A DNA stretch of 64,000 bases from a virus (taxonomy: Duplodnaviria > Heunggongvirae > Uroviricota > Caudoviricetes): positions 1 to 64,000 of IMG/VR virus record IMGVR_UViG_3300025853_000035. One strand, 5' to 3'. The notes below the pieces were generated by a model. The model saw only the letters and a program-made list of their open reading frames with translations. It made no database searches and was not told the DNA's origin. The translations under genes and the position numbers were made by a program. How positions within the stretch are numbered: the first letter of the stretch is position 1; each line of letters begins with the position of its first letter. Below, one piece after another: positions 4,107 to 63,978 of the stretch.

Positions 4107-5870
4107 TCAGCGGTGGCCAGCGCCGGTCATCTTCTTCGTCCCGCGACGGGCCTTCTGCTTGGCCCATTTCAGATATTGCGAGGTGGCGTCCACTTGGTCG
4201 TCATTCTTGCCGTTAGGGAAGGCCACGAGTTCCTTCTCATAATCGGCAAGCCACTTGGCGCTTTCCGGCAGGTAGACCTGCCCGGCCTCGAACATCGGCG
4301 TCACTTCGTCGAAACGGAACGACTTGCTCGCGGTGCCCACCTCGATTGGGATCAGCGCGGTAGGAGCACCACCATTCGCCTTCAACTGGCAATAGGCCAG
4401 ACCGTTGCCCTTGGCTTCGACCAGCAGGGCGTCGGCGTCGTAGCGCTTCACCACGCGGGCGATCTCGGACGACAGTTCGACCAGTTCCATTCGCTTGCGG
4501 ATCACGTCCACCAGATAATGGTTCCGTTTGAGGTCTTCGATCCAGACCGTGATGACGGTGTAGTCGCTTCGCTCCTTGTCCGTGTTCGCGGCGTCAACCG
4601 AAACCACGGTGCGACGAATCTGGTTCTGCGTTCCCTTCTCAGGATCGGCCTTGGCCGGCGGATGGGTGTAGCGCTGGAACCATTCAGCATCGACCGCGCC
4701 GCCGCTCACGTCCATAGGCGTGCCCTGATACAGCGAGTTCCACGACGCGGAAGTCATATCGCTTCTGAGATTTTCCAATGCGTCGAGGTCGTAAACCTCT
4801 GGCCACAATGCTTCGCCGGACGCCCGGCCTAGAATATCGTTGTCTTCTTCGGCGATGGCGGGGAGATTAATAATTTCAAAGCGGTATTTTTTGCGTTTTC
4901 CCTCTTTTTCCTCAAGAGAATCAATGAGTTGGTCCGCAAAATCTTTTTCTATTTTTTCTTGCTCTTCTCTTTTTTCCCGTTCTTCGCGATCTGAGATGCG
5001 TCCGCAGAGGTCGTCAGAGTGCCAGCGGGTCATAATAATGCCCAGCGGGGAACCCGGCAGAAGGCGCGTGGAGAAGTCGTCTGAATACCATTTGAACGCG
5101 GTGTCGCGGATCGTCGGGCTTTCAGCGTCCTTGCGGCTCTTGTAGGGATCGTCCACCATACCGTAGTGACCACGGAAGCCGGAGATACCCTGTCCGACAC
5201 CCTTGCCGACATATTTGCCCTTACCATTGGTCAGTGCCCAATAGTCCATGGCGCGCATGTCGTGCTTGATCTTGATGTCGGGGAAGACGCGCTGGTAATC
5301 CTCAGACGCGATGATCTGGCGAACGGTTGCACCGATTTCCTTGGCGACGAAGTCCTGACTGTGCCCGGCTTGCAGGAACTTCTGCTTCGATCCGAACTTG
5401 CCGAACCACCACGCAGGGAAGTGGTGCGACGAGTGGGTCGATTTACAGTGCCCCGGAGGCATGGACAGCATGAAGCGCATGGTCTCCTTGGAAGCGGAGG
5501 ACATGAGCAAGTCTCCGATGAGTTTCTGGTGCGGCGACATGGTGTAACCATTCTCGCGCTGCATGAACTCATAGAAATCGTGGTAGCTCTCGCGCGCCAG
5601 TTCGATCCAGACTTCGTCCAGTTCGGCCTCGGCGAAGTCGATCGTCTTATCGAGCGTGGTTAGCTGCGTGTCGAGATCGTCGGACTGACTAAGCGTCCGA
5701 AGTGCTTGGTAGTCGTGGGGCGAGAGGGTTGTCTGCTTGCGGACTGCTTCCTCCACTCGCGTCTGCAAGGACTTGAGTGACTTGACCGATGAGTGCAAGC
5801 GTGTTTTGCGGTCCCGCTTGCTTTCCGCTAGTTGCATCTGCTTGTGCTTTCTCGAACATTTTGAGGGCAT
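4107..5870 (-). CDS. terL: terminase large subunit
   Basis: 587-aa ORF. ATPase region plus the MTRWHSDDL motif and a C-terminal nuclease region (VSVDAANTDKERSDYTV, GKNDDQVDA). The start is uncertain: the listed start overlaps terS by about 180 nt, and later Met codons exist. Confidence 0.8.
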   Translation of the reverse strand: MPSKCSRKHKQMQLAESKRDRKTRLHSSVKSLKSLQTRVEEAVRKQTTLSPHDYQALRTLSQSDDLDTQLTTLDKTIDFAEAELDEVWIELARESYHDFYEFMQRENGYTMSPHQKLIGDLLMSSASKETMRFMLSMPPGHCKSTHSSHHFPAWWFGKFGSKQKFLQAGHSQDFVAKEIGATVRQIIASEDYQRVFPDIKIKHDMRAMDYWALTNGKGKYVGKGVGQGISGFRGHYGMVDDPYKSRKDAESPTIRDTAFKWYSDDFSTRLLPGSPLGIIMTRWHSDDLCGRISDREEREKREEQEKIEKDFADQLIDSLEEKEGKRKKYRFEIINLPAIAEEDNDILGRASGEALWPEVYDLDALENLRSDMTSASWNSLYQGTPMDVSGGAVDAEWFQRYTHPPAKADPEKGTQNQIRRTVVSVDAANTDKERSDYTVITVWIEDLKRNHYLVDVIRKRMELVELSSEIARVVKRYDADALLVEAKGNGLAYCQLKANGGAPTALIPIEVGTASKSFRFDEVTPMFEAGQVYLPESAKWLADYEKELVAFPNGKNDDQVDATSQYLKWAKQKARRGTKKMTGAGHR

Positions 5871-8788: not shown

Positions 8789-10138
8789 ATGACCACACCA
8801 ACCAGCCATACTGACGCTGCCGACTCGCAGACGCCCGCCGCCGTCCCTGATGTGCCCTTCACCAGCCGCTCCGGTGCGCTACCCAACGAGCGCGTGATGA
8901 TCACCACGGGCATCTTCTATGTGATGGAGCACGACGGCCCCATCCGCTTCTGGATTCACGCGCGCACCTACAACAAGCGCCCGGTCGCTGGTGGTCCCAA
9001 GCGCGTTCGCGGCTTCAACGAGTATGACAAGGCCGTGCGCTTCATGCGCCGGGCGACCAAGGACGCGATCGCCGCTGATCCTGCCGTCCGCAAATGGTTG
9101 GCCAGCTATGAAGGTGTTGAGGCCAACAATGCCGCCGGCATCCAGAACTTAGACCCTGTGCCCCCTCGCAAGCGTGGCCGGCCGGTGGGCAGCAAGAATG
9201 CACCCAAGCCGCAGAAGCCGGGACCGAAGCCCAAACCGCCCGAACCGAAGAAGCGCGGACCCAAGCCGAAACCCCAGCCGCCCGCGCCGATCGAGCATCC
9301 GCCCGTGTCCTTGACCGCGCTGGTTGATCGCTTCCGCATCGAGCCGGAGCTTTCCAACCCGATCGCACAGGTCTGGCGCTGCGTCTCGAACACGGCTCCT
9401 GCTCGTGGCCGCCGGGCGCGCACCGGGAACAACCAGACCGGCGACCTTCCGCACCTGATGGGGAGCTACCTCATCACGCACTATGACCGGGGCGTCTATT
9501 CGGCCGCCTCGGATGAAGACGGCGTGGCCTATATCTATCCGACGTGGATCGACGCGGAACGGGAGGCCAAGTTCTTTTACGAGCAAGCGCCGGAACCCAA
9601 GCTGCCGATGGAAGGGATCACCCACTACCGGGTCGATCATGTTGAGGTTCACCTGACGCCCGCCATCCACGACGGCCGGCCCTATTCGCTGTTCGACACG
9701 CGGGTCTGTGCATATGTGCGCGACGGGCGCGGATACAAGTCCTACACCCGACTCGACAGTGCAAAAGAAGCGGCAAACGAATATGCCGACCTCGCGCCCT
9801 TCTCGGTGCGGCTGGCCCGCGCGCTGGTGGAGACGCCGGAAGAGAAGGCGAACCGCGAGCGCCGCGAGGAACTGGAAGCGATCGAAGCCGCCCGCGCCCA
9901 AGAGGAACGCGACCGCCTCTATGAAGAGGAGATGGCTGACCTCGCGCGCCGCCGGGCGAACGCGCCAGAGCGCCGGTTCCTGACACCGGAGGAGATCGCG
10001 ATCGAGAAGGCCAAGCGCGTGCAGATCATCAACCCGACGCCGGAGCAGAAGCTCGCCGCCCGCCGGGCCAAATATGTGCGCCGGTCCTATTCGGATCGGG
10101 AAGCGCGCGCCCACCGGCAGGCGGCGTCTGATTCGTAG
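8789..10138 (+). CDS. AT-hook-containing DNA-binding protein (candidate origin-binding protein)
   Basis: Pro/Lys-rich segment with AT-hook cores (PRKRGRPVGSKN, KKRGPKPKP) and a charged C-terminal coiled region. A TTGACA promoter lies inside the listed ORF, so the start was moved to the ATG at 8789. Confidence 0.55.
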   Translation: MTTPTSHTDAADSQTPAAVPDVPFTSRSGALPNERVMITTGIFYVMEHDGPIRFWIHARTYNKRPVAGGPKRVRGFNEYDKAVRFMRRATKDAIAADPAVRKWLASYEGVEANNAAGIQNLDPVPPRKRGRPVGSKNAPKPQKPGPKPKPPEPKKRGPKPKPQPPAPIEHPPVSLTALVDRFRIEPELSNPIAQVWRCVSNTAPARGRRARTGNNQTGDLPHLMGSYLITHYDRGVYSAASDEDGVAYIYPTWIDAEREAKFFYEQAPEPKLPMEGITHYRVDHVEVHLTPAIHDGRPYSLFDTRVCAYVRDGRGYKSYTRLDSAKEAANEYADLAPFSVRLARALVETPEEKANRERREELEAIEAARAQEERDRLYEEEMADLARRRANAPERRFLTPEEIAIEKAKRVQIINPTPEQKLAARRAKYVRRSYSDREARAHRQAASDS

Positions 10139-15214: not shown

Positions 15215-15502
15215 ATGGAAATGACGCGGAGCTACCCTGTCCCGACCGAGCGCTGGTATCACAGCTACATCCCGTGCGTGGTCATCACGACCATCTTGGG
15301 CTTCGCCATGGCGGCATGGACCGACGGGACCACCACCGCTGTCATCCTGAGCTTCGGCATCATGGGCGTCCTGAGCTTCGCCGTCACGGCTGCTGCGTGG
15401 ATGGTCGATGGCTTCACGGCGAAAAGCTGCGGTGCCTTCTGGACGATGATGACCTGCGGCGCGGTGTGCGCTTTCGTGCCTGTTGGGGTGGACCTGTTTT
15501 GA
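15215..15502 (+). CDS. membrane protein (95 aa, 2-3 TM helices)
   Basis: Hydrophobic segments. Confidence 0.4.
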   Translation: MEMTRSYPVPTERWYHSYIPCVVITTILGFAMAAWTDGTTTAVILSFGIMGVLSFAVTAAAWMVDGFTAKSCGAFWTMMTCGAVCAFVPVGVDLF

Positions 15503-38768: not shown

Positions 38769-39004
38769 GCGCCAAGATGACCCGCATCCTCCTCCCCGGT
38801 CTGCCGTCCGGGGAGGGCTATCTGGATTGGGACGAGCGCTCGATCGAGGATATGGTCTCCATCATGCGCCGCCGGGCGGCCCACTACCGGATGGTGGCTG
38901 ACGCCATCGACCGGGCGGCCGACGAGGACTTCAAGATCGACATCGTCCGGGGATCGATCGTCCAGCACCACATCCGCAACCTCCAGCCGGGACGCGACGC
39001 ATGA
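38765..39004 (+). CDS. hypothetical protein (GTG start)
   Basis: In-frame GTG overlapping the upstream stop. Confidence 0.35.
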   Translation: MSAKMTRILLPGLPSGEGYLDWDERSIEDMVSIMRRRAAHYRMVADAIDRAADEDFKIDIVRGSIVQHHIRNLQPGRDA

Positions 39005-39294
39005 GCTTCGAATTGCTCTCACCCGGCCCGCTAGGTGCCATCCTCCACGTCAACCGCCAGTTCATCGCCATGAACGCCAAGGACGGAGGCAACCGCCCCG
39101 TCTACACCCTCAAGCCCAACGGCCCGAACTCGACACCGATCTATGCCCGCGAGGTCTCCGTCGATGGTCCCTCGCGCTGCGTGTTCAGCGCCGACCGGCT
39201 CGCCTGCGGTGCCCATGCTTGGATTGCTATCCCGCCCGGCACCACCCTCGGCCTTCACGATCCGATGACCTTCGAGGAGGCCAAGGCCGCCTGA
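39001..39294 (+). CDS. hypothetical protein (97 aa)
   Basis: ORF only. Confidence 0.4.
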   Translation: MSFELLSPGPLGAILHVNRQFIAMNAKDGGNRPVYTLKPNGPNSTPIYAREVSVDGPSRCVFSADRLACGAHAWIAIPPGTTLGLHDPMTFEEAKAA

Positions 39295-39312
39295 CCTACC
39301 GCTGACCTACCG
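39293..39312. repeat. integrase arm-type repeats (2 copies of TGACCTAC, inverted)
   Basis: ctgacctaccgctgacctacc; reverse complement of the GTAGGTCAG repeats further right. Confidence 0.6.
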
Positions 39313-39437
39313 TTGTCTCCACCTCACCCGTCGTCCGAAAGGCCGGCGGGTGTTTTGTTTTGTGATTCGCGAGCCGCTGAATTTCCCCCATAAGACCCAT
39401 CTTGACCCATGGCGTAACACCGTGAGCCAAGGAAAAG

Positions 39438-39462
39438 TAGGTCAGAAAGTAGGTCAGCGCCA
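39438..39462. repeat. integrase arm-type repeats (2 copies of GTAGGTCAG)
   Basis: aagtaggtcagaaagtaggtcagcg. Confidence 0.6.
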
Positions 39463-39470
39463 AGAAACGA

Positions 39471-39498
39471 AAAGCCCCGCCGGTTAGGGCGGGGCTAT
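39471..39498. terminator. rho-independent terminator-like hairpin
   Basis: AAAGCCCCGCCGGTTAGGGCGGGGCTAT. Confidence 0.5.
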
Positions 39499-39524
39499 AA
39501 ACCCTTGATTTACAAGGGAGAAAA

Positions 39525-39572
39525 TGGTGGACGCACTAGGGTTCGAACCTAGGACCCGCTGATTAAGAGTGA
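39525..39572 (-). other. 3' tRNA fragment (acceptor 3' strand, T-arm and CCA): the attP core
   Basis: The minus strand reads ...GGTCCTAGGTTCGAACCCTAGTGCGTCCACCA. No matching 5' acceptor strand (GGACGCA) lies upstream, so this is a partial tRNA copy as expected of a phage att core. Confidence 0.7.
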
Positions 39573-39696
39573 CAAACTCCTGTTACACGACGAGACGCGC
39601 CGAGACAAGCTGTCTCAAGAAAACCCCGGAAATCCGCCATTTTTGGTCCTTTCTTAGTAACAACGTGGGACATCCTGTTTCATCCAGAAACGACAA

Positions 39697-39762
39697 AAAG
39701 TAGGTCAGGAGTAGGTCAGCCCTCTTGCGGCGGCGCTCCGGGTAGGTCAGAAGTAGGTCAGA
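39697..39762. repeat. integrase arm-type repeats (4 copies of GTAGGTCAG)
   Basis: agtaggtcaggagtaggtcagcc ... ggtaggtcagaagtaggtcagaaac, immediately upstream of int. Confidence 0.6.
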
Positions 39763-39792
39763 AACTCGATCTGCAAACAGGAAGATTTGTCC

Positions 39793-41148
39793 ATGAAGAA
39801 ACAGCTTACGGCGGCCTTCGTCAAGGGCCTCAAGCCCGGTCCGAAGAAACAGGTGATCACTGATTCTGTGGCGGCCAACCTCCGCCTGATCGTCCACCCG
39901 ACCGGGCGAAAGATTTGGGCATGGCAAGGCAAGGTGAACGGTGAGCCGAAGACGGTGACGCTGGGTCAGTGGTTGGAGACCGGAGGCATGGACCTGTCCG
40001 CCGCCCGCGAGCGAGCGACCGAGATCAACACCGCCAAGGTCGAGGGAAGAGCGGTGAGCTTCCTAACGCCCAGCGAGGAGTCATCCGAGCCGGCGATCGA
40101 CCCGCGCGCCTCCCTCACCTGCGACTGGATGTTCGATCAATATATGGCGGCCGAGGGCGAGACGAGGAAGACGGCCAAGGAGAAGCGGACCACCTACAAC
40201 CGGGAGATCAAACCGACGCTGGGTGAGCGGCAGATCGACACCATCACCTACGACGATCTGGCGGCGATCGTGCAGAAGAAGTTTGCGGAAGGGAAGGGGC
40301 CGGCGTCGAACCGGCTCAAGGCGCTCATCGCCCGCTGGTGGAAGTGGGGCGTCTCGCGCGGCCGGGCCGTGACCGGTCTGACCGTCAACCCGGCGATCGA
40401 TCTGGTGAGCCTCGCCGACGAGAACAAGCGTCGTCGCTACCTCACGAATTACGAGATCGGGGTGTTCTTCAAAGGAACCTATTTGGCTCGTGACACCTTC
40501 GCTGAGATGATGACCGTCATCCTCTACACCGGCCTGCGACGGAGCGAGGCGGCCGGTCTGACATGGGACGAGGTCCGCTTCCACGACAACACGATTCTGA
40601 TCAGCGGTGAGCGGATCAAGAACGGGTTGGACCTGCTGCTGTGGATGCCGGACACGGTGGTCGCGATCCTGCGCCAACGCAAGCGCCTCACCGGCAATTA
40701 CAAATACGTCTGGCCGGCCCCGTTCTCGTGGAGGCAGGGCGAGACGGTCGATGAAGACGAGGACACGTCGAAGGAGCTAATCAGCTTCACGAAGCCCATG
40801 AACGCGCTCAACGAGACCTGCCAGAAGCTGGCGGCGAAGGAGCGGAAGACCATGGAGCGGTTCACCGTCCACGATCTGCGTCGCACGCTGGCGACGGGTA
40901 TGCGGGGATTGAGGGATGCCGAGGACAAGCCTCTCATCCTGTCGGACATCGTCGAGCGGGTCATCAACCACATCATCGGCGGCGTCCGGGGCAACTACGA
41001 TCACCACGACTATTTCGCGGAGAAGAAGGCGGCGCTCCGCATTTGGGCGGAGCACCTTGATCCGATCAGGCTGACCGCTCACGCAGCCATTGAGAAAACT
41101 CACTCCGCAGCCAGCGGGTCGCCTGCACGTTCACTGGCTGAGGCATGA
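39793..41148 (+). CDS. int: tyrosine integrase (P4-type)
   Basis: N-terminal arm-binding domain (LTAAFVKGLKPGPKK...ANLRLIVHPTGRKIWAWQGKVNG, DUF4102-like) and a catalytic region with HDLRRTLATGM and a C-terminal Tyr. Adjacent to a tRNA fragment and arm repeats. Confidence 0.9.
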   Translation: MKKQLTAAFVKGLKPGPKKQVITDSVAANLRLIVHPTGRKIWAWQGKVNGEPKTVTLGQWLETGGMDLSAARERATEINTAKVEGRAVSFLTPSEESSEPAIDPRASLTCDWMFDQYMAAEGETRKTAKEKRTTYNREIKPTLGERQIDTITYDDLAAIVQKKFAEGKGPASNRLKALIARWWKWGVSRGRAVTGLTVNPAIDLVSLADENKRRRYLTNYEIGVFFKGTYLARDTFAEMMTVILYTGLRRSEAAGLTWDEVRFHDNTILISGERIKNGLDLLLWMPDTVVAILRQRKRLTGNYKYVWPAPFSWRQGETVDEDEDTSKELISFTKPMNALNETCQKLAAKERKTMERFTVHDLRRTLATGMRGLRDAEDKPLILSDIVERVINHIIGGVRGNYDHHDYFAEKKAALRIWAEHLDPIRLTAHAAIEKTHSAASGSPARSLAEA

Positions 41149-41386
41149 ACTTTCCGTCGCGCCGCCAGCGGTAAAGCGTCTGCCGGCTGATCTTGAGCTT
41201 GGCGCAGATTTCCGCGATCGTAATGATTTCGTCGGGATCAGCATCACGCGCCGGGGTGATAGTGCCGAGGAGAGTGGCCATGCTGAGGAGGCCATTCAAT
41301 TCGGCATCATCAAGGGTGATACCGAGGCCGCTGGCTTTAGCGGCCTCGATCTTCGCACACAGGGAGGTCATGTCGGTCATGCTCAT
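41066..41386 (-). CDS. AlpA-like HTH excisionase / transcriptional regulator
   Basis: ISRQTLYRWRRDGKFMPQPVNVQATRWLRSEFSQWL matches the Phage_AlpA helix-turn-helix signature. Convergent with int. Confidence 0.7.
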   Translation of the reverse strand: MSMTDMTSLCAKIEAAKASGLGITLDDAELNGLLSMATLLGTITPARDADPDEIITIAEICAKLKISRQTLYRWRRDGKFMPQPVNVQATRWLRSEFSQWLRERSA

Positions 41387-41461
41387 GGTCTACCCAGAAT
41401 GACCATCACTGTCAATTCATAATAGCTCTTGGTCGATCATCACGCGCCATCACGTCATTTT

Positions 41462-42001: not shown

Positions 42002-42352
42002 ATGGCTCAGAAGCTCATCCTTGATGACCAGATGGAGGTGCTGCGGCAGAACGGGGCGGTCGCCTCGCGCTCCGGCGACGGCAGCGATCTTCGTCCCGTG
42101 CTCAAGCTCTTCACCCCGGACGGCGCGGCGACGTGGCTTATCTCCGAGATCGATGCCGACGGCGACACGCTGTTCGGTCTGTGCGATCTGGGCCTCGGAG
42201 AACCAGAGCTTGGTTACGTCTCGCTGACCGAGATCAAGTCGATCCGGGGCGGGCTGGGTCTCCCGGTCGAACGGGACATCTCGTTCACCCCGACGATGAC
42301 CATGGCCGAATATACCACCAAGGCTCGCCGGGCCGGCCGGATCGTTCTTTGA
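42002..42352 (+). CDS. DUF2958-like protein
   Basis: LFTPDGAATWLISEIDADGDTLFGLCDLGLGEPELGYVSLTEIKSI resembles DUF2958. Promoter copy at 41922-42001. Confidence 0.4.
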   Translation: MAQKLILDDQMEVLRQNGAVASRSGDGSDLRPVLKLFTPDGAATWLISEIDADGDTLFGLCDLGLGEPELGYVSLTEIKSIRGGLGLPVERDISFTPTMTMAEYTTKARRAGRIVL

Positions 42353-42417: not shown

Positions 42418-42753
42418 ATGATGGGGGACTATGCTCACGAGCCGCCGGACGATGAGACTGATCCGGTCTATCTCCTGCTCAAGGCAGGGTATAGGCCGGA
42501 GCAGTTCGAGGCCGCCTGCAAGCGCCTCCGTCCGATGGCACTCGACGATTATCTGCGTGAGCCGTTCTCGGACCTCGAAAAGATGATCTTGCGGTTGGCG
42601 GTGGAGAACACATCGTGGATCACCACCTACCGCACCCACGCCCCAACCCGTGACTCGCCCATGCTGATCCGTGAAGCATTGACCGCGTTGCGAACCCTCG
42701 CCGCCAAGCTCGAAGACTTCGGCATCGAAGTCAACTACATCCCCAACGATTGA
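42418..42753 (+). CDS. hypothetical protein (starts MMGDYAHEPP)
   Basis: Internal ATG of ORF 42133..42753. Confidence 0.4.
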   Translation: MMGDYAHEPPDDETDPVYLLLKAGYRPEQFEAACKRLRPMALDDYLREPFSDLEKMILRLAVENTSWITTYRTHAPTRDSPMLIREALTALRTLAAKLEDFGIEVNYIPND

Positions 42754-42764
42754 AAAGGAGCCAC

Positions 42765-43865
42765 ATGTTCGACATCTGTGTATTCGCTGGCCGTATGCGT
42801 CCGCCGACGGCCGCTCATCTGGCCAACATCCGCGCCGGCCTCGCCGCTTCCCAATATGTCTTCGTCATCATCGGCTCGACCGGTGAAGCCCCGCACTTCA
42901 AGAACCCCTTCACGTTCGACGAAGTCCAGACCATGATCCGTGGCTCGCTGTCGGCGGCCGAGAATGATCGCGTCTTCGTCCACGGCGTCCGCGACCGCGA
43001 CAATGACCTTGCGTGGGTCCGCGACGTGCAGAAGATCGTCCACGAACAGGCGACCGCGCTGTCGATCCCCGGCGAGCCGCGTATCGCTCTGGTAGGCTGC
43101 AACAAGGACGGCTCGTCCTATTACCTCAAGCTCTTCCGCCAGTGGGGAAGCATCGGTGTCGAGCCGATCCTGAACGACGGCGAATCGATGTCGGCGACCG
43201 CCATGCGTATGGCGCTCTACGAAGCCGAGGACCCCGGCCGCGTCCTCAAGACGTGGAAGGACCTGTTCGGCGCTTCCTATCTCCCGCACGGCACCTTCTG
43301 GTTCCTGCGCCAGTGGGTGAACACCGAGCACTTCCAGCAGATGCGGGCCGAGGCGCTGTTCATGCGGGACGAACTCAAGAAGTTCCAGCCGAACCCCTAC
43401 ACCGGCCAGCCGCAGCAGCACAATTGCGCCGACTTCTATCTACAGCACGGCGGCGCTGTCCTGCTGGTCAAGCGCGATCGGATGCCCGGCGAAGGGCTGT
43501 GGGCGGTGCCCGGCGGGCACAAGCACGCCTACCAGACGTTCCGCGACGCAGCGCTCGCTGAGCTTGGTCAGGAAACCAGCATCTTCGACCTGAACGAAGC
43601 CATCACGCCCGACGTGATCAACAGCTACATCCGGGGCGACAAGCTGCTCGACAATCCGTGGCGGTCGAACCGCGAAGTGACCGTCTCGGTAGCTTACGGC
43701 GCGCTGCTGCCCGGCAGCTTCACCCGGCCGCTGATCGAAGGCGCTGACGACGCCCGCGAAGCCCGCTGGTGGAACATCGACGAGATCACCCGTGACATGA
43801 TGTTCGAAGACCACTTCAACATCATCGAGGATTTCTCGAACCGCTTCCGCGATCTGACGATCTAA
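42765..43865 (+). CDS. nadM: bifunctional NMN adenylyltransferase / Nudix ADP-ribose pyrophosphatase (NadM-Nudix)
   Basis: N-terminus ICVFAGRMRPPTAAHLANI matches the archaeal-type NMNAT motif GRFQPxH/TxGH. C-terminal Nudix box GGHKHAYQTFRDAALAELGQETS. SD AAGGAG before the ATG. Confidence 0.7.
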   Translation: MFDICVFAGRMRPPTAAHLANIRAGLAASQYVFVIIGSTGEAPHFKNPFTFDEVQTMIRGSLSAAENDRVFVHGVRDRDNDLAWVRDVQKIVHEQATALSIPGEPRIALVGCNKDGSSYYLKLFRQWGSIGVEPILNDGESMSATAMRMALYEAEDPGRVLKTWKDLFGASYLPHGTFWFLRQWVNTEHFQQMRAEALFMRDELKKFQPNPYTGQPQQHNCADFYLQHGGAVLLVKRDRMPGEGLWAVPGGHKHAYQTFRDAALAELGQETSIFDLNEAITPDVINSYIRGDKLLDNPWRSNREVTVSVAYGALLPGSFTRPLIEGADDAREARWWNIDEITRDMMFEDHFNIIEDFSNRFRDLTI

Positions 43866-43877
43866 TCAGGAGACCCC

Positions 43878-45344
43878 ATGAGCTATATCACGACCATCGG
43901 GGAACTGCTGAACCAGCCGATCCTCAACAGCGACACCTACAAGAACAGCCACTGGACGTTCGAGCACCCGCAGTTCACTTCGAGCTACGGCTACATCGAA
44001 GCCCGTAAGGGTGGCGAGTTCAGCGAGGTCATGTTCTTCGGCCTGCAATACCTGCTGCGCTATTACCTGACCCAGCGCGTCACCGACTCGGTGATCGCCC
44101 ACGCCCGCCGCTTCCTCCCGCTGCACGGCGTGCCGTTCAACGAAGAAATGTGGACGACCATCCGCGACAAGCACGATGGCCGGTGGCCGGTGCGGATCAA
44201 GGCGCTTCCAGAGGGCGTCCTCGTCCCGCAGGGCTGTGTCCTTGTCACGGTGGAATCGCTCGACGAGGAATGCGCCGGTGTCGCCGCGTTCGTCGAAACC
44301 CTGCTGCTTCGCGGCGTCTGGCTCCCCACCACGATCGCCACCCGGTCGATGCGCTGGTGGCGTCTGGTCGATCGCTACCTCACCCAGAGCGGCACGCCGG
44401 AGACGGCGGAGTTCAAGGTGGTGGACTTCTCGGCGCGCGGCGTCCGGTCGTCCGAGGACGCAGGCATCTCCGGCATGGCCCATCTCCTGAACTTTCAGGT
44501 GACCGACAATCTGCTTGGCATCCTGTTCGGCCAGAACGCCTACACGACCGAAACCATGCTGGGATATTCGATCCCGGCGACCGAGCACTCGGTCACCACG
44601 TCGTGGGGCAAGGAAAACGAGCAGGCGTTCTTCGAGCACATTCTCGAAGTCCATGGCCAGACCGTGAACCCGCTGGGCGGCCGGTCGCCGGTGTCGGTGG
44701 TGATCGACACCTACGATCAGGACAACGCCGTCCGCATGTGGCTGACGCCGGCCGAGAAGGGCGGTTGCGGCCTCCGCGAGAAGCTGGAAGCGTCGAACAT
44801 GTGCGTCGTGCTGCGGCCGGACTCGGGTGATCCGATCATCAACGTCGTCCACCTGCTCGACCTGATCGGAAGCCTGACGGGCTGGACGGTCAACGAGAAG
44901 GGCTTCCGCGTCCTCCCGGATTTCGTTCGCGTCATTCAGGGCGACGGCATCCACGAAGAATCGCTGCGCCGCATCCTCCAGCGTGTGGTCTACCACACTT
45001 GGTCGATCGACAACCTGACCTTCGGTTCGGGCGGTGGTCTGATGATGCACGACGTGGAGCGCGACACCCACCGCTTCGCCATGAAGACCTCGGAAGTGGT
45101 CATCGGCGGTATCACCAGCGCCGTCCGCAAGGAGGTCAAGACCGATCCGTCCAAGGCATCCAAGGCCGGGCGCTTCGCAGTGGTGATGGAGAACGACGTG
45201 CTGATCACCATCCCGGAAGACGAACTCAACGGTCGTCTCAACTATCTGCGGACGGTCTACGAGGACGGCGAACTGGTCGCCCCTGAGACGTTCGATCAGG
45301 TCCGGGAGCGCGCTCGCCAGTGGCGCGTCATCGGGCACGGCTAA
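43878..45344 (+). CDS. nadV: nicotinamide phosphoribosyltransferase (NadV/NAMPT)
   Basis: N-terminus LNQPILNSDTYKNSHW matches the NAMPT DT/SYKxxH signature. 488 aa. Confidence 0.8.
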   Translation: MSYITTIGELLNQPILNSDTYKNSHWTFEHPQFTSSYGYIEARKGGEFSEVMFFGLQYLLRYYLTQRVTDSVIAHARRFLPLHGVPFNEEMWTTIRDKHDGRWPVRIKALPEGVLVPQGCVLVTVESLDEECAGVAAFVETLLLRGVWLPTTIATRSMRWWRLVDRYLTQSGTPETAEFKVVDFSARGVRSSEDAGISGMAHLLNFQVTDNLLGILFGQNAYTTETMLGYSIPATEHSVTTSWGKENEQAFFEHILEVHGQTVNPLGGRSPVSVVIDTYDQDNAVRMWLTPAEKGGCGLREKLEASNMCVVLRPDSGDPIINVVHLLDLIGSLTGWTVNEKGFRVLPDFVRVIQGDGIHEESLRRILQRVVYHTWSIDNLTFGSGGGLMMHDVERDTHRFAMKTSEVVIGGITSAVRKEVKTDPSKASKAGRFAVVMENDVLITIPEDELNGRLNYLRTVYEDGELVAPETFDQVRERARQWRVIGHG

Positions 45345-52322: not shown

Positions 52323-53564
52323 TTAGCCCTTGACGTTCAAGACCTGCCGGAGCCGGTGCTTGATCTCGACCAGATCGTCCTGAGCGGCCATGACCGCACC
52401 GATCGGCTTGTAGGCGGCCGGACTCTCGTCCAGCACATCCGCATCAAGGCGGGCCTCGATCCCCTTCATGGCCTCGGCGTGCTGCTCCATGGTGATCAGC
52501 GCCTTGGCCTTGGTCCGGCTCATGGTCCGCCCGGCTCCGTGGCTGCACGAGTGGAACGAGTTCGGGTTGCCCTTGCCCTCCACGATGAAGCTGCCGGTGC
52601 CCATGGAGCCGGGGATGATCCCCAAGGTGCCCTCACGAGCCTGCACGGCACCCTTGCGGGTCACCCAGACATTCTCGCCGTAGTGCGACTCTCGGGTCAC
52701 ATAGTTGTGGTGGCAGTTGACCGCCATCTGCTCGGACATGAACGGGGGAAGGGTCTGACGCAGCACCCGGAGGACAGCCGCCATCATCTCCTTCCGGTTC
52801 TCCATGGCGAACTCCTGTGCCCACTCGACCGCCTCGCAGTAGTCGTCGTAGACCTCGGTGTGCTCTACCAGATAGGACAGGTCCTGATCCGGCAGATAGT
52901 CCGCGATGTGATAGCGGTGCATCTCCTCCTTCGCCTTCTCGATGAAGTAGGTGCCGATCGCGTTGCCGATACCGCGCGAGCCGGAGTGCAGCATCACCCA
53001 GACCCGGTTCTCCTCGTCGAGGCAAAGCTCGATGAAGTGGTTGCCGGTGCCGAGCGATCCCAGATGCTGGGTCGGAAGCCGACGCTGGGCGATCTTAGGG
53101 TGCTTGGCGATGATCGCGTCATAACCCTTCTCCAGATACTTCCAGCGCTCGACGACGGAGGCCGGCGGGTTGCCCCATGAGCCGGGATCACGCCCGCCAC
53201 GAATCTGATCCATGGTTCCGCGACCGTGAGGAACCGCCGCCTCGATCATCCCACGGATATGGGATAGGCTGTCCGGGAGATCGTCGGCGGTCAGGGAGAG
53301 GCGAAGCGCCATCATCCCACAGCCAATATCGACGCCGACCGCCGCCGGGACGATCGCGCCCTTGGTGGCGATCACGGTGCCTACGGTCGAACCCTTGCCG
53401 GCGTGAGCGTCAGGCATCACGGCGACGTGCTTGTGGACGAAAGGCATCCGCGCCATGTTCTCGATCTGCTGGATGGCCTCAGCCTCGAACGGATAGCCCT
53501 CCGGCTCCCACAGCTTGACCAGCTTCTTGCGGCCGAAACTGTCCTCAACCTGATGAACGCGCAT
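52323..53564 (-). CDS. rtcB: RtcB RNA ligase (3'-phosphate/2',3'-cyclic phosphate RNA-splicing ligase)
   Basis: 413 aa. MPDAHAGKGSTVGTV, HSGSRGIGN and NCHHNY motifs typical of RtcB. Confidence 0.85.
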   Translation of the reverse strand: MRVHQVEDSFGRKKLVKLWEPEGYPFEAEAIQQIENMARMPFVHKHVAVMPDAHAGKGSTVGTVIATKGAIVPAAVGVDIGCGMMALRLSLTADDLPDSLSHIRGMIEAAVPHGRGTMDQIRGGRDPGSWGNPPASVVERWKYLEKGYDAIIAKHPKIAQRRLPTQHLGSLGTGNHFIELCLDEENRVWVMLHSGSRGIGNAIGTYFIEKAKEEMHRYHIADYLPDQDLSYLVEHTEVYDDYCEAVEWAQEFAMENRKEMMAAVLRVLRQTLPPFMSEQMAVNCHHNYVTRESHYGENVWVTRKGAVQAREGTLGIIPGSMGTGSFIVEGKGNPNSFHSCSHGAGRTMSRTKAKALITMEQHAEAMKGIEARLDADVLDESPAAYKPIGAVMAAQDDLVEIKHRLRQVLNVKG

Positions 53565-58997: not shown

Positions 58998-59855
58998 ATG
59001 GCTCAAGCCACCAAGAAAATCGCAGAGAAGACAGCTTGGCTGAGAGAGGCCATAGAGCGTGGCAAGAAGGAATGTTTCAGCATCGTCGCTGACATCACGC
59101 CCGAGGCGGCGGCACTCCTTCTGGACAACAACCCCGACAACCGCAGCATCAACGCGACGATCGTGCGCCAGCTAGTGGCCGACATGAAGAACAAGCGGTG
59201 GCAGTTCAATGGTGAGTCGATCATCGTCGCAGACACCGGCGAACTCAACGACGGGCAGCACCGTCTCTCGGCCGCCGTCGAGGCGGGTTTCACCTTCAAG
59301 AGCGTCCTCGTCTTCGGCGTCCCGCGCGTCAGCCGCATCACGCTCGACATGGGCCGCATCCGCAGCGTCGGGGACTATCTGCAAATCTCCTCGATCAAGA
59401 ACTCCATGACGGTGGCGGCCATCACGCGGCTGGTCATGTCTTGGGAGCGCGCCAACGGGCGCAACTTCGAAGCCGGCAAATGGCTGACGATCCCAGAGCA
59501 GATCACGCGCGCTATGACCGATGAGGCGATCCATCACGCGGCAAATTGGGCGGTCAGCCGTAACCCATACGCCCATAGACTCGCCCCCGGCTCGGCCTTT
59601 GGCTTCTGCTATGTCGTCCTGTCGCGAATCAACCCCAGCGACGCGGAGACCTATTTGGAGCAGGTCGTGATGGGAGAGGGCCTGCACCGCAAGGACGCGG
59701 CGTTCGCTGTGCGTGATGCTCTGGTGGTAAGCGAGACCCGGATCAGGGTAGAGCGGATCGCGATGATCCTGCGGGGCTGGTCACACTTCCGTAACCAGAC
59801 TGAGCCTAGCAAGCAGGCTATCAACGGACGCTTCCCGCTTCCTGAACTCAACTAG
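58998..59855 (+). CDS. ParB/Srx-like nuclease-domain protein
   Basis: IIVADTGELNDGQHRLSAAVEAG matches the ParB N-terminal box (GxxRxxA). Confidence 0.6.
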   Translation: MAQATKKIAEKTAWLREAIERGKKECFSIVADITPEAAALLLDNNPDNRSINATIVRQLVADMKNKRWQFNGESIIVADTGELNDGQHRLSAAVEAGFTFKSVLVFGVPRVSRITLDMGRIRSVGDYLQISSIKNSMTVAAITRLVMSWERANGRNFEAGKWLTIPEQITRAMTDEAIHHAANWAVSRNPYAHRLAPGSAFGFCYVVLSRINPSDAETYLEQVVMGEGLHRKDAAFAVRDALVVSETRIRVERIAMILRGWSHFRNQTEPSKQAINGRFPLPELN

Positions 59856-59866
59856 GAGGAGACCCT

Positions 59867-60274
59867 ATGGCCAGCCAAACGATGATGAACGGGTTGAAGG
59901 GCATCGCAGCCTTCGTGGCGATTGCCGGCGGTGGTGTGATGCTCTTGAAGCTCCAATATGATTCCTCACCGGCTGGGCAGGCGGTCGCGGCGAAGCTGGA
60001 GCAGCAGGAAAACGATCGGCCCCTCATCAACGTCGCGGAGACGTTGGTGAAGGGCCGATTGCGTGATCCAGATAGCGCGACATTCACAGGCACGAAGGTC
60101 GTCCGCAGCAGCGGGAAGGAAGCCGTCTGTGGTTTCGTGAACGCTCGCAACGGCGCGGGCGGTATGGCCGGCGACAGATGGTTCATCGTCGCGGACAGCG
60201 AAGCCTATTTCATGGACGACGGCGCTGACGCCGCTCAGGTGATCGAAGCGACCTGCGGAACTACTTCGACTTGA
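59867..60274 (+). CDS. membrane-anchored protein (135 aa)
   Basis: N-terminal TM/signal segment GLKGIAAFVAIAGGGVMLL. Confidence 0.4.
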   Translation: MASQTMMNGLKGIAAFVAIAGGGVMLLKLQYDSSPAGQAVAAKLEQQENDRPLINVAETLVKGRLRDPDSATFTGTKVVRSSGKEAVCGFVNARNGAGGMAGDRWFIVADSEAYFMDDGADAAQVIEATCGTTST

Positions 60275-62622: not shown

Positions 62623-62757
62623 GGGTTCTCAAATCTGGCTGGGGAGGGGCGGCACCTAAGCGGATGCCATCTTGTTAACCATAGCAGGTTATGCCCCAAA
62701 TGTCAATTCATAATGACCGTCAGTAAGACGTGACACTGGTTTTCGCTGGGGATGATC

Positions 62758-62833
62758 TGGCACGGGTGGTGGGACTCGAACCCACGTTGCACGGTTTTGG
62801 AGACCGGCCGAATAGCCGCTATCTTACACCCAT
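62758..62833 (-). tRNA. tRNA-Trp (CCA)
   Basis: Manual cloverleaf: acceptor ATGGGTG/CACCCGT, T-arm GTGGGTTCGAGTCCCAC, anticodon loop CTCCAAA, encoded CCA. Confidence 0.6.
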
Positions 62834-62842
62834 GTGAAACGC

Positions 62843-62926
62843 TGGAGCCGCCCACAGGGATCGAACCTGCGTCCTTTCGGAACCTCCGGGTTGCAACCGG
62901 GTGCCTTACCTCTCGGCCAAGGCGGC
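62843..62926 (-). tRNA. class II (Ser-like body) tRNA with apparent GCA anticodon
   Basis: Acceptor GCCGCCT/GGGCGGC, Ser-like D-arm GGCCGAGAGGTAAGGC, 14-nt variable arm, T-arm GCAGGTTCGATCCCTGT, CCA. The anticodon region CCGGTTGCAACCGG is palindromic; the most plausible loop TTGCAAC gives GCA. Confidence 0.5.
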
Positions 62927-62933
62927 TCATATC

Positions 62934-63020
62934 TGGAGGAGAGTGAGGGGATCGAACCCTCCCAGCCTTTCGGCTACCTTCGCTTAGCAAGCGAGTGCGT
63001 TACCACTCCGCCAACTCTCC
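62934..63020 (-). tRNA. tRNA-Ser (GCT)
   Basis: Acceptor GGAGAGT/ACTCTCC, D-arm GGCGGAGTGGTAACGC, loop TTGCTAA, long variable arm, T-arm GGGTTCGATCCCC, CCA. Confidence 0.65.
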
Positions 63021-63027
63021 ATTAAAC

Positions 63028-63100
63028 TGGATGCCCGGCCACGGATCGAACGTGGGTTTCATGCTTCAAAGGCACGGGTCTTACCATTAGACGAACGGGC
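63028..63100 (-). tRNA. tRNA-Gln (TTG)
   Basis: Anticodon stem CGTGC/GCATG, loop CTTTGAA, T-arm CCACGTTCGATCCGTGG, CCA. Confidence 0.55.
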
Positions 63101-63102
63101 AT

Positions 63103-63180
63103 TGGTTCTCCGCCGAGGACTCGAACCTCTATCTTTCCGCATTCAGAGTGCGGCGGCCGGACCTGCCAGCTAAGCGGAGA
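63103..63180 (-). tRNA. tRNA-Gln (CTG)
   Basis: Acceptor TCTCCGC/GCGGAGA, anticodon stem CCGCA/TGCGG, loop CTCTGAA, T-loop GGTTCGAGTCC, CCA. Confidence 0.55.
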
Positions 63181-63198
63181 ACAGGATCAGGACTTAGG

Positions 63199-63272
63199 GG
63201 TGACCTGTGGGTTTCGAACCCACCATCTCCGGCACCACAAGCCGGCGCATCAACCTACTCTGCCTAGGCCAC
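63199..63272 (-). tRNA. tRNA-His (GTG), no encoded G-1
   Basis: Acceptor GTGGCCT/AGGTCAC, anticodon stem CCGGC/GCCGG, loop TTGTGGT, T-arm GTGGGTTCGAAACCCAC. Position -1 is U and no CCA is encoded. Confidence 0.6.
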
Positions 63273-63369
63273 ACCTAAATCCTGAACTGCATCCCATCGT
63301 CCTCATGTGACCAGATATGACCGATAGGGCGGTCATATTGCCCATATATGGACGATAGAACGGTCAAAC

Positions 63370-63446
63370 TGGAGCCGACGGTGGGATTTCAACCCACGAT
63401 CTGCCGTTTACGAGACGGCTGCTTTGAGGCTCTAAGCTACGTCGGC
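63370..63446 (-). tRNA. tRNA-Thr (CGT)
   Basis: Acceptor GCCGACG/CGTCGGC, anticodon stem GCCGT/ACGGC, loop CTCGTAA, T-arm GTGGGTTGAAATCCCAC, CCA. Confidence 0.65.
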
Positions 63447-63453
63447 ATAACTC

Positions 63454-63540
63454 TGGTGCGGTTCCCCGGACTTGAACCGGGACGGCCTTTCGGCCACTGA
63501 GGTTTGAATCCAGCGCGTCTACCAATTCCGCCAGAACCGC
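63454..63540 (-). tRNA. tRNA-Leu (CAA)
   Basis: Leu-type D-arm GGCGGAATTGGTAGACGC, loop TTCAAAC, long variable arm, T-arm CCCGGTTCAAGTCCGGG, CCA. Confidence 0.65.
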
Positions 63541-63548
63541 ATTGATCT

Positions 63549-63634
63549 TGGTGCCCTAGGCAGGACTTGAACCTGCACGACCTTTCGGCCCACGGCCTCT
63601 CATGCCGCTATGTCTACCGTTCCATCACAAGGGC
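63549..63634 (-). tRNA. tRNA-Leu (GAG)
   Basis: Leu-type D-arm GATGGAACGGTAGAC, anticodon stem GCGGC/GCCGT, loop ATGAGAG, long variable arm, T-arm GCAGGTTCAAGTCCTGC, CCA. Confidence 0.6.
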
Positions 63635-63646
63635 GTGATTGTAATC

Positions 63647-63730
63647 TGGTGCGCCTCCCCGGACTTGAACCGGGACGAGTTTCCCCCACGGCTTCTGAGG
63701 CCGCTACGTCTGCCATTCCGCCAGAGGCGC
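63647..63730 (-). tRNA. tRNA-Leu (CAG)
   Basis: Acceptor GCGCCTC/GAGGCGC, D-arm GGCGGAATGGCAGACG, loop CTCAGAA, T-arm CCCGGTTCAAGTCCGGG, CCA. Confidence 0.65.
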
Positions 63731-63736
63731 GTTAAC

Positions 63737-63823
63737 TGGTGGGTAGGTGAGGTATCGATCCTCCCCCTCTTGCGAGGCGCGGTGTTACAGACCGCCTGCC
63801 GGAGCCACCGGCTTTACCTACCC
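63737..63823 (-). tRNA. tRNA-Tyr (GTA), class II
   Basis: Acceptor GGGTAGG/CCTACCC, anticodon stem GCGGT/ACCGC, loop CTGTAAC, long variable arm, unusual T-loop ATCGATA, CCA. Confidence 0.55.
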
Positions 63824-63891
63824 GTGAAAATTGAAAACAAAAAAGCGCCAAGAGCCAGTGGCTCATGACGCTGTGAAAAATCGCGATGGGG

Positions 63892-63978
63892 TGGAGGAGG
63901 GTAGAGGAATCGAACCCCTAGGTCTCTCAACACTAGCCCGGTTTTCGAGACCGGTTTGCACCCTGTGCGCTACCCTCC
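63892..63978 (-). tRNA. tRNA-Ser (CGA), class II
   Basis: Acceptor GGAGGGT/ACCCTCC, anticodon stem CCGGT/ACCGG, loop CTCGAAA, long variable arm, T-arm AGGGGTTCGATTCCTCT, CCA. Confidence 0.55.

Follow-up and report, generated by a model that had tools for sequence, protein, structure and literature searches.

Integrases of the P4-like group (Arm-DNA-bind_3/DUF4102), among them those of CP4-57 (IntA/AlpA), epsilon15, phiV10 and the Tyrion type, share three domains: an arm-binding, a SAM-like and a catalytic domain. Their phage attachment site (attP) lies immediately upstream of the integrase gene (int), has several arm repeats to either side of a core copied from the 3' end of a tRNA gene, and is accompanied by a small helix-turn-helix (HTH) partner of the AlpA/Vis type. 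In the satellite phage P4 the arm sites abut the start of int. The attP of phage lambda likewise consists of a P arm, a core and a P' arm with repeated arm-type sites, and is served by an integrase with an N-terminal arm-binding domain and by a small directionality factor encoded beside int. Islander tRNA-targeting islands carry a copy of the tRNA 3' part, regenerate the target gene and leave a displaced fragment that marks their far end (PMC4383910). Counterparts of these features, including a likely directionality factor, are seen in or around the locus described here, which lies in a 64,000-bp stretch of tailed-phage DNA (IMG/VR record IMGVR_UViG_3300025853_000035, positions 1 to 64,000; hereafter the window). 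The segment 39291-41386 of the window, comprising an attP with a tRNA core, a tyrosine integrase gene and an AlpA-like gene, is very probably a complete integration module of the lambda/P4 style, seen in the unintegrated phage (circularised or replicating) and acting by the mechanism proposed below.

Compared to the P4-like group, the abutment of the arm sites on the int start is the same, whereas the block of identity with the tRNA, 46 nt long, extends back to the anticodon loop and is not confined to the T-loop and the acceptor end, and after integration an int of the window type adjoins the displaced fragment, not the complete tRNA. The lambda core measures 15 bp and is intergenic, in contrast to the 46-bp tRNA fragment of the window phage, whose attP extends over ~470 bp; sites for IHF and Xis and core-type sites are not recognisable by sequence in it. 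The Islander elements differ in being integrated, whereas the element in the window is a 151-kb virion-forming phage in the attP state. Overall, an attP with a tRNA core of this kind is ordinary and belongs to the standard arm-dependent type used by tyrosine integrases.

The attP site and its recombination genes

The 9-mer GTAGGTCAG has eight exact matches in the window, all inside 471 bp (39291-39761), compared to a chance expectation of 0.21; eight copies were reached in none of 100 shuffles. Four copies lie on each side of the core, in agreement with a preliminary description of this DNA, made from the sequence alone, that had placed arm repeats on either side. Six copies read on the plus strand (39437, 39449, 39700, 39711, 39742 and 39753) and the other two, at 39291 and 39302, on the minus strand; within pairs they are spaced by 11-12 bp, about one helical turn. 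The distal P' arm (39291-39310, minus strand) holds two copies at 11-bp spacing (39291-39299 and 39302-39310), inverted relative to the other six, the first of which overlaps the TGA stop codon of the open reading frame (ORF) 39001-39294. The proximal P' arm (39437-39457, plus strand) holds two direct copies at 12-bp spacing (39437-39445 and 39449-39457). On the integrase side, the P arm (39700-39761, plus strand) consists of four direct copies in two pairs (39700/39711 and 39742/39753), each with 11-bp spacing, and its final copy stops 31 bp short of the int ATG, where the int promoter would be expected. The site is an attP rather than an attL or attR, as had been proposed, because its core, present as a single copy in the window, is flanked left and right by arm repeats and by phage genes.

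The core (39525-39570, minus strand) is formed by the 3' 46 nt of tRNA-Lys(CTT), positions 31-76. The plus strand of this segment is the reverse complement of ACTCTTAATCAGCGGGTCCTAGGTTCGAACCCTAGTGCGTCCACCA, which spans tRNA position 31 (the last base of the 5' anticodon-stem strand), the anticodon loop, the variable loop, the T-arm, the acceptor 3' strand and CCA. The preliminary description had reported a 48-nt 3' fragment at 39525-39572 made up of the T-arm, the acceptor strand and CCA; the fragment and these parts are indeed present, the coordinates were off by 2 nt, and the actual piece is larger and includes the anticodon. Its further statement that a matching 5' half is missing agrees with ARAGORN, which sees no complete tRNA at 39525-39570, does not call the fragment alone and finds no tRNA-Lys anywhere in the window. 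Once a 30-nt host 5' half is joined to the phage core, the program calls a canonical tRNA-Lys(ctt). The phage lacks the 5' anticodon-stem strand, with TGTCA where the tRNA has GCTGA, and an obvious stem-based inverted repeat is therefore absent. An Rfam scan of 39200-39900 gave no tRNA match, the fragment falling short of the length that the model needs.

Comparison with strain L004 revealed how the core varies. Its integrase protein is identical to that of the window, with 99.8% nucleotide identity of int and ~93% identity in the flanks, and four of the 11 substitutions in the att region fall inside the 46-nt core. In the L004 core, the T-stem pair 49:65 is swapped from C-G to G-C with the pairing kept. 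Because of this compensatory swap, the core is seen, by comparison of these two strains, to evolve under tRNA constraints, as expected if it joins the host gene after integration.

Two hairpins follow the tRNA fragment on its 3' side. A small one, CCCTTG-N5-CAAGGG (39502-39518, minus strand), sits between the CCA end and an intrinsic-terminator-like hairpin of nine pairs, eight of them G-C, that is followed by a T-run (39463-39496, minus strand). The terminator is kept, and the small hairpin has an equivalent, in the attL of the bacterial island L007 described below. Weak matches to small RNA families in the Rfam scan (E ~0.005, far under the gathering scores) are explained by the terminator hairpin and were rejected.

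The int gene (39793-41148, plus strand) encodes a tyrosine integrase of 451 amino acids and is preceded by the ribosome-binding site AGGAAG (39779-39784), 8 nt upstream of the ATG. A TTG start at 39787 was rejected: the look-up of its exact product was empty, and the protein on record is the 451-residue form that starts at the ATG. Pfam analysis revealed the arrangement Arm-DNA-bind_3, Phage_int_M and Phage_integrase, with Arm-DNA-bind_3 (PF13356) at residues 5-85 scoring 31.2 bits against a cutoff of 27 and Phage_integrase scoring 39.4 bits against 27.1; the protein is assigned to PHROG 1 (integrase). The full catalytic set of a tyrosine recombinase, R249, K276, H360, R363, H393 and Y402, is invariant when the protein is aligned with 18 homologues (25-91% identity). 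A search of 50,697 phage records found no phage integrase more than 27% identical (best 25-27%), the NCBIfam CP4-57-type model PRK09692 scored 30.6 bits against a cutoff of 434, and a PDB sequence search with the integrase gave no match. The label of a P4-type integrase, given in the preliminary description, thus holds for the domain architecture, and a close sequence relationship to P4 or CP4-57 is not shown by these values. The architecture fits an enzyme that would work like the P4 type, with remote sequence kinship to P4/CP4-57, and by these searches its lineage is new relative to cultured phages.

Convergent with int lies a gene on the minus strand (41066-41371/41386) for a small DNA-binding protein of the AlpA/HTH_17 family, 101-106 residues long. 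Its C-terminal half matches HTH_17 (1e-10) and Phage_AlpA (24.1 bits, cutoff 21), and the protein matches PHROG 66, 'excisionase and transcriptional regulator'. Domain and position together make it a likely excision directionality factor or regulator. It had been described beforehand as an AlpA-like Xis, of which the AlpA/HTH_17 domain and the convergent position are confirmed, the Xis role being what these two suggest. The ratio of nonsynonymous to synonymous substitution rates (dN/dS) is 0.07 for alpA, and for int 0.16 against the copy of a phage contig with a 91%-identical integrase (L006) and 0.10 against those of the islands; by these ratios, int and alpA are under purifying selection in the phage lineage.

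The arrangement of int and alpA is conserved in three related phage contigs, L006, L119 and L129. The two genes overlap tail to tail by 83 nt (window 41066-41148), and an identical 83-nt overlap is found in L006 and in L119, whose integrase is 45% identical; its retention hints at antisense or coupled regulation. An exact 11-mer, ATGAATTGACA, which includes a TTGACA -35-like hexamer, occurs at 41410-41420 and 62701-62711, both on the minus strand; the first copy lies upstream of the AlpA-like gene and the second upstream of a tail-fibre-like gene. Its count in the window is not significant; a similar sequence is found near the att region of L119.

The closed phage genome and its predicted bacterial target

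Fetched parts of 150,792-bp contigs from two ENA samples are 100% identical to the window, without a mismatch, and between the two samples the contigs are rotated. One of them ends in the same 141 nt with which it begins, whereas 142 nt do not match. An end overlap of k=141 is the mark that MEGAHIT leaves on a closed sequence. Because the contig ends overlap by exactly this length, the genome is closed, at 150,651 bp, and because the closed genome has no bacterial flank, the phage is in its non-integrated form. This was the state proposed in the preliminary description, and no bacterial chromosome with a complete tRNA adjoins the element in the closed assembly. The assembly fits a circular replicative form and terminally redundant virion DNA equally well. 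Many metagenome contigs encode a protein 100% identical to the integrase; 22 index blocks fall in the 50-200 kb class.

Similarity of the large terminase (TerL) is highest to Erythrobacter phage XM05 (76% identity), followed by Sphingobium phage Lacusarx (72%), Erythrobacter phage vB_EliS-L02 (66%) and Citromicrobium phage RXM (53%). Around the locus, 11 homologues are syntenic with XM05. Judged from these comparisons, the phage is a 150.65-kb relative of XM05 and of the Lacusarx-like/CbK-like siphophages of Sphingomonadales. With the prolate siphophages of this group (XM05, vB_EliS-L02, Lacusarx and RXM) it shares a size of ~150 kb, a GC content of ~60% and a tRNA cluster, and with XM05 also the NadV/NMNAT, RtcB and primase genes in synteny. 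In addition to the large terminase, the window encodes a primase-helicase, RtcB and NadV/NMNAT, and it has a long series of small genes on the plus strand. The genes for nicotinamide adenine dinucleotide salvage (an NMNAT-Nudix fusion and NadV/NAMPT) and for the RNA ligase RtcB are located at 42750-45344 (plus strand) and 52323-53564 (minus strand), and are those syntenic with XM05. The tRNA cluster (62758-63978, minus strand) contains 11 genes, for Trp, Cys, Ser (two), Gln (two), His, Thr and Leu (three), and none for Lys. Some TerL homologues of the group (P0152, P0154 and P0162; 914-916 residues) carry intein/homing-endonuclease domains (PF14528 and PF14890).

The host target was sought by searching the core in bacterial contigs representing one genome per species. 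The 46-nt core has 102 exact matches, namely 91 complete tRNA-Lys(CTT) genes and 11 displaced fragments from other elements. With 46/46 identity to the complete genes, the fragment does identify the host tRNA gene, as had been expected of it. Since a RodA homologue was found inside the 8-kb locus at 76 of the 102 matches, the bacterial attachment site (attB) is predicted to be the tRNA-Lys(CTT) gene next to rodA-pbp2-mreDCB. The named records with a matching core are nearly all Erythrobacteraceae, including Erythrobacter, Altererythrobacter, Qipengyuania, Citromicrobium, Porphyrobacter, Croceicoccus and others. Erythrobacteraceae is accordingly the predicted host family, in agreement with the nearest cultured phages by TerL.

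The cassette in chromosomal islands and related phages

An integrase 84% identical to that of the window (P0003) is encoded in the bacterial contigs L007, L008 and L009, in which it belongs to small islands beside the same tRNA gene. These contigs run from a TonB-dependent receptor gene through a tRNA-Lys 3' fragment (minus strand), two copies of GTGAGGCAG, int and ~4 kb of cargo to arm repeats with a terminator, a complete tRNA-Lys(CTT) (minus strand) and the genes rodA, pbp2, mreD, mreC and mreB. The 138 nt adjoining the complete tRNA of the island are 88% identical to window 39433-39570, so that the P' arm is homologous in the island, and the counterpart of the proximal P' pair of arm sites adjoins the complete tRNA in both L007 and L118. 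L118, which encodes an integrase of 81% identity (P0004), has the same layout as L007, with GTGAGGCAG on both sides. The complete tRNA of the islands is rebuilt with the 3' part of the element, whose terminator follows it, and int is at the far end, by the displaced fragment; the same gene-rebuilding logic is the principle of tRNA-targeting islands (PMC4383910). Compared at the sequence level, the islands of L007 and L118 show exactly the attL/attR geometry predicted for recombination of the window attP with attB.

Several further features of the islands were observed. They measure 6-7 kb and have no AlpA-like gene of their own. The arms of L007 are mixed, with GTGAGGCAG by the integrase (9909-9928) and the phage-type GTAGGTCAG by the complete tRNA (15344-15365), where the terminator is 88% identical to that of the window; this suggests a past tandem insertion of, or recombination with, a similar phage. 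Just 3' of int, and on its strand, islands with the 84%-identical integrase have additional complete genes for tRNA-Lys(CTT), one or two in each (L007:11405-11480; L008:4131-4206 and 4251-4326; L011:1532-1607 and 1652-1727). In the acceptor and anticodon stems these are unlike the target tRNA, and one possibility is that they provide a spare or variant tRNA-Lys. A second gene shared by phage and island encodes a 135-residue protein with a hydrophobic N-terminus, 58% identical between the two (window 59867-60274, plus strand; L007:11909-12310).

The cassette varies among related phages. XM05 keeps homologues of the flanking genes, 67% identical for ORF 39001-39294 and 60% for the DUF2958 gene at 42002-42352, and between them has seven unrelated small ORFs, no integrase and no tRNA gene, where the window phage has attP-int-alpA. 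In L119 (integrase 45% identical) the tRNA part is the 3' part of tRNA-Arg(TCT), and int with an HTH_17 gene is found at a different genome position; in L128 (35%) it is the 3' part of tRNA-Asn(GTT), and in both the tRNA identity also starts at the anticodon loop. L129 (43%) has a tRNA-Lys fragment (L129:4327-4372) in the same orientation as int, which is the reverse of that in the window; the T-stem of this fragment is a mismatched hybrid of two alleles (CTAGG/CCAAG). The arm motif co-varies with the integrase at fixed positions: it is GTAGGTCAG in the window, GTTGGTCAG in L006 (91%), GTGAGGCAG in the islands (81-84%), GTAGGYC in L119 and GTATGCAGA in L128. The two-pair layout of the P arm recurs with GTGAGGCAG in L118 and with GTTGGTCAG in L006. 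The 37-kb contig L006 starts within the T-loop of the tRNA core, which is what a branch in the assembly graph gives if the sequence is also present in the host tRNA gene of that sample.

The integration cassette is thus swappable, being absent in the nearest isolate, relocated in relatives, combined with different tRNA targets and common to small chromosomal islands. A bolder reading, which we consider unlikely, is that attP and int form an exchangeable module common to ~150-kb Lacusarx-like phages and 6-7 kb islands at the same rodA-linked tRNA-Lys gene, and retargeted among Lys, Arg and Asn tRNAs, the islands, without an AlpA-like gene, possibly being satellites or hitchhikers that would need the directionality factor of a helper phage for excision. 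If true, this phage group would be a natural system for how integrases switch targets.

Proposed mechanism and its alternatives

In the proposed mechanism, the N-terminal arm-binding domain of the integrase would bind the eight GTAGGTCAG sites, and its core-binding and catalytic domains would bring the 46-bp core into synapsis with the 3' part of the host tRNA-Lys(CTT) gene, to which the core is identical. Strand exchange would take place 3' of tRNA position 31, at or past the start of the anticodon loop, because of the extent of the identity between core and tRNA. The resulting attL would combine the host 5' tRNA half with the phage 3' part and the phage terminator, so that the tRNA gene stays intact, and the terminator at 39463-39496 would end the rebuilt tRNA-Lys gene. 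The attR would consist of the P arm and int beside the displaced tRNA 3' fragment. The AlpA/HTH_17 protein is most likely an excision helper or a regulator, as its family suggests, and the arm sites abutting the int start probably let the integrase autoregulate.

Integration by this particular phage is inferred rather than observed, and a number of results weigh against the proposal. None of the 102 core-matching genome loci has the flanking DNA of the window phage, so that no attL or attR of it was found there. Among JGI metagenome contigs, the exact 73-nt attL junction had no match, and a gapped attL pattern had seven, two of the L007-type island and the rest chance matches at other tRNA-Lys loci. 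The attP form is the one seen in all 24 contigs examined for the identical integrase. In XM05, the closest cultured phage, the attP-int-alpA cassette is missing, and a lytic life style is described for the cultured relatives (PMC9127768). Among the window ORFs, no repressor gene was recognised. Within the module, a sigma-70 promoter scan gave no site, including none for int; core-type inverted repeats bracketing a defined overlap are not identifiable from the sequence; and NCBIfam excisionase models score the AlpA-like protein under their cutoffs. Scans of IMG/VR with the integrase and the attP pattern gave no match.

Some of these results are the ground for the alternative that survives best, which takes the module for a passenger or relic. 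In it, the phage would be effectively lytic and would no longer form lysogens, its cassette having been captured from a chromosomal island, or the cassette would have another role, such as resolving genome multimers. The missing integrated copy in genomes and metagenomes, the uniform attP form of the contigs, the XM05 locus without the cassette, the relatives reported as lytic and the lack of a recognised repressor all fit it. Against this stand the purifying selection on int and alpA within the phage lineage, the intact catalytic residues, the eight perfect arm repeats, the tRNA pairing of the core kept between strains by compensatory change, and a cassette design common to several diverged phages whose tRNA targets differ. 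We regard a relic as improbable, because a decaying one would not combine these features.

For the wider phage group, lysogeny has some support. A TerL homologue of 54% identity is located at 252 kb of a 3.68-Mb chromosome of an Erythrobacter metagenome-assembled genome, flanked by 10 kb of phage genes in both directions; this locus (L130; ENA ERZ25074452 ctg12145, 241998-263563 of 3,684,795 bp), which also has thioredoxin, HD and PhoH genes near TerL, is apparently an integrated prophage of a related phage. Insertion of that prophage at the same tRNA-Lys was rejected, as tRNA-Lys in the same chromosome (locus L055) directly adjoins a host gene and is unoccupied. RXM has already been reported to have integrase and repressor genes and 'lysogeny potential' (PMC8953757).

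Less probable still, and by our estimate very unlikely, is an extrachromosomal plasmid-prophage for which the integration module would be secondary. It would agree with the assembly of the genome as a closed circle, with an XM05 gene annotated 'ParB-like partition protein', and with a DGQHR motif in ORF 58998-59855 (plus strand). The episomal state had been raised in the preliminary description on account of a ParB-like gene, probably this ORF, which encodes 285 residues, belongs to PHROG 5931 (unknown function) and has a motif reminiscent of ParB/sulfiredoxin-fold nuclease domains. That suggestion found no support: Pfam, run on ~95 ORFs of the window and not on the other 87 kb of the genome, detected no ParB, ParA or plasmid replication domain, and searches of NCBIfam and of PDB sequences with ORF 58998-59855 gave no match. 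Motif scans and a tblastn search of the window with an approximate Spo0J query sequence returned only the DGQHR motif, without family support. The ParB-like protein of XM05 has no homologue in the window, and no TerL relative above 33% identity occurs among 72,556 plasmid records (PLSDB). Moreover, terminally redundant virion DNA also assembles as a closed sequence, and direct terminal repeats have been reported for this phage group (PMC8953757).

It is hardly credible that the tRNA fragment is the attL or attR of a small element inserted in a phage-borne tRNA-Lys rather than the attP of the phage itself, as the 11-tRNA cluster, the nearly identical integrases in 6-7 kb islands and the differing genome positions of the cassette in related phages might suggest, since the core is single-copy with no complete tRNA-Lys in the window, arm repeats on both sides of a single core define an attP, and the equivalent XM05 locus holds unrelated ORFs and no tRNA gene.

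A phage integration module that targets the host tRNA-Lys(CTT) thus remains the favoured reading of this locus. Integrase genes were known in the group before (PMC8953757), and neither that study nor PMC9127768 reports an attP or a target site for it. The biology is that of the textbook, and the value of the finding is mainly ecological and taxonomic. It assigns a predicted host family to an abundant uncultured phage that is assembled as contigs of more than 50 kb in many samples. It also suggests that a phage group so far represented by lytic isolates alone is able to form lysogens through insertion into host tRNA-Lys(CTT), and would thereby give a group of large marine and estuarine phages of Erythrobacteraceae, of which the cultured members are treated as lytic, a concrete and testable mechanism of lysogeny at the tRNA-Lys(CTT) gene by rodA.

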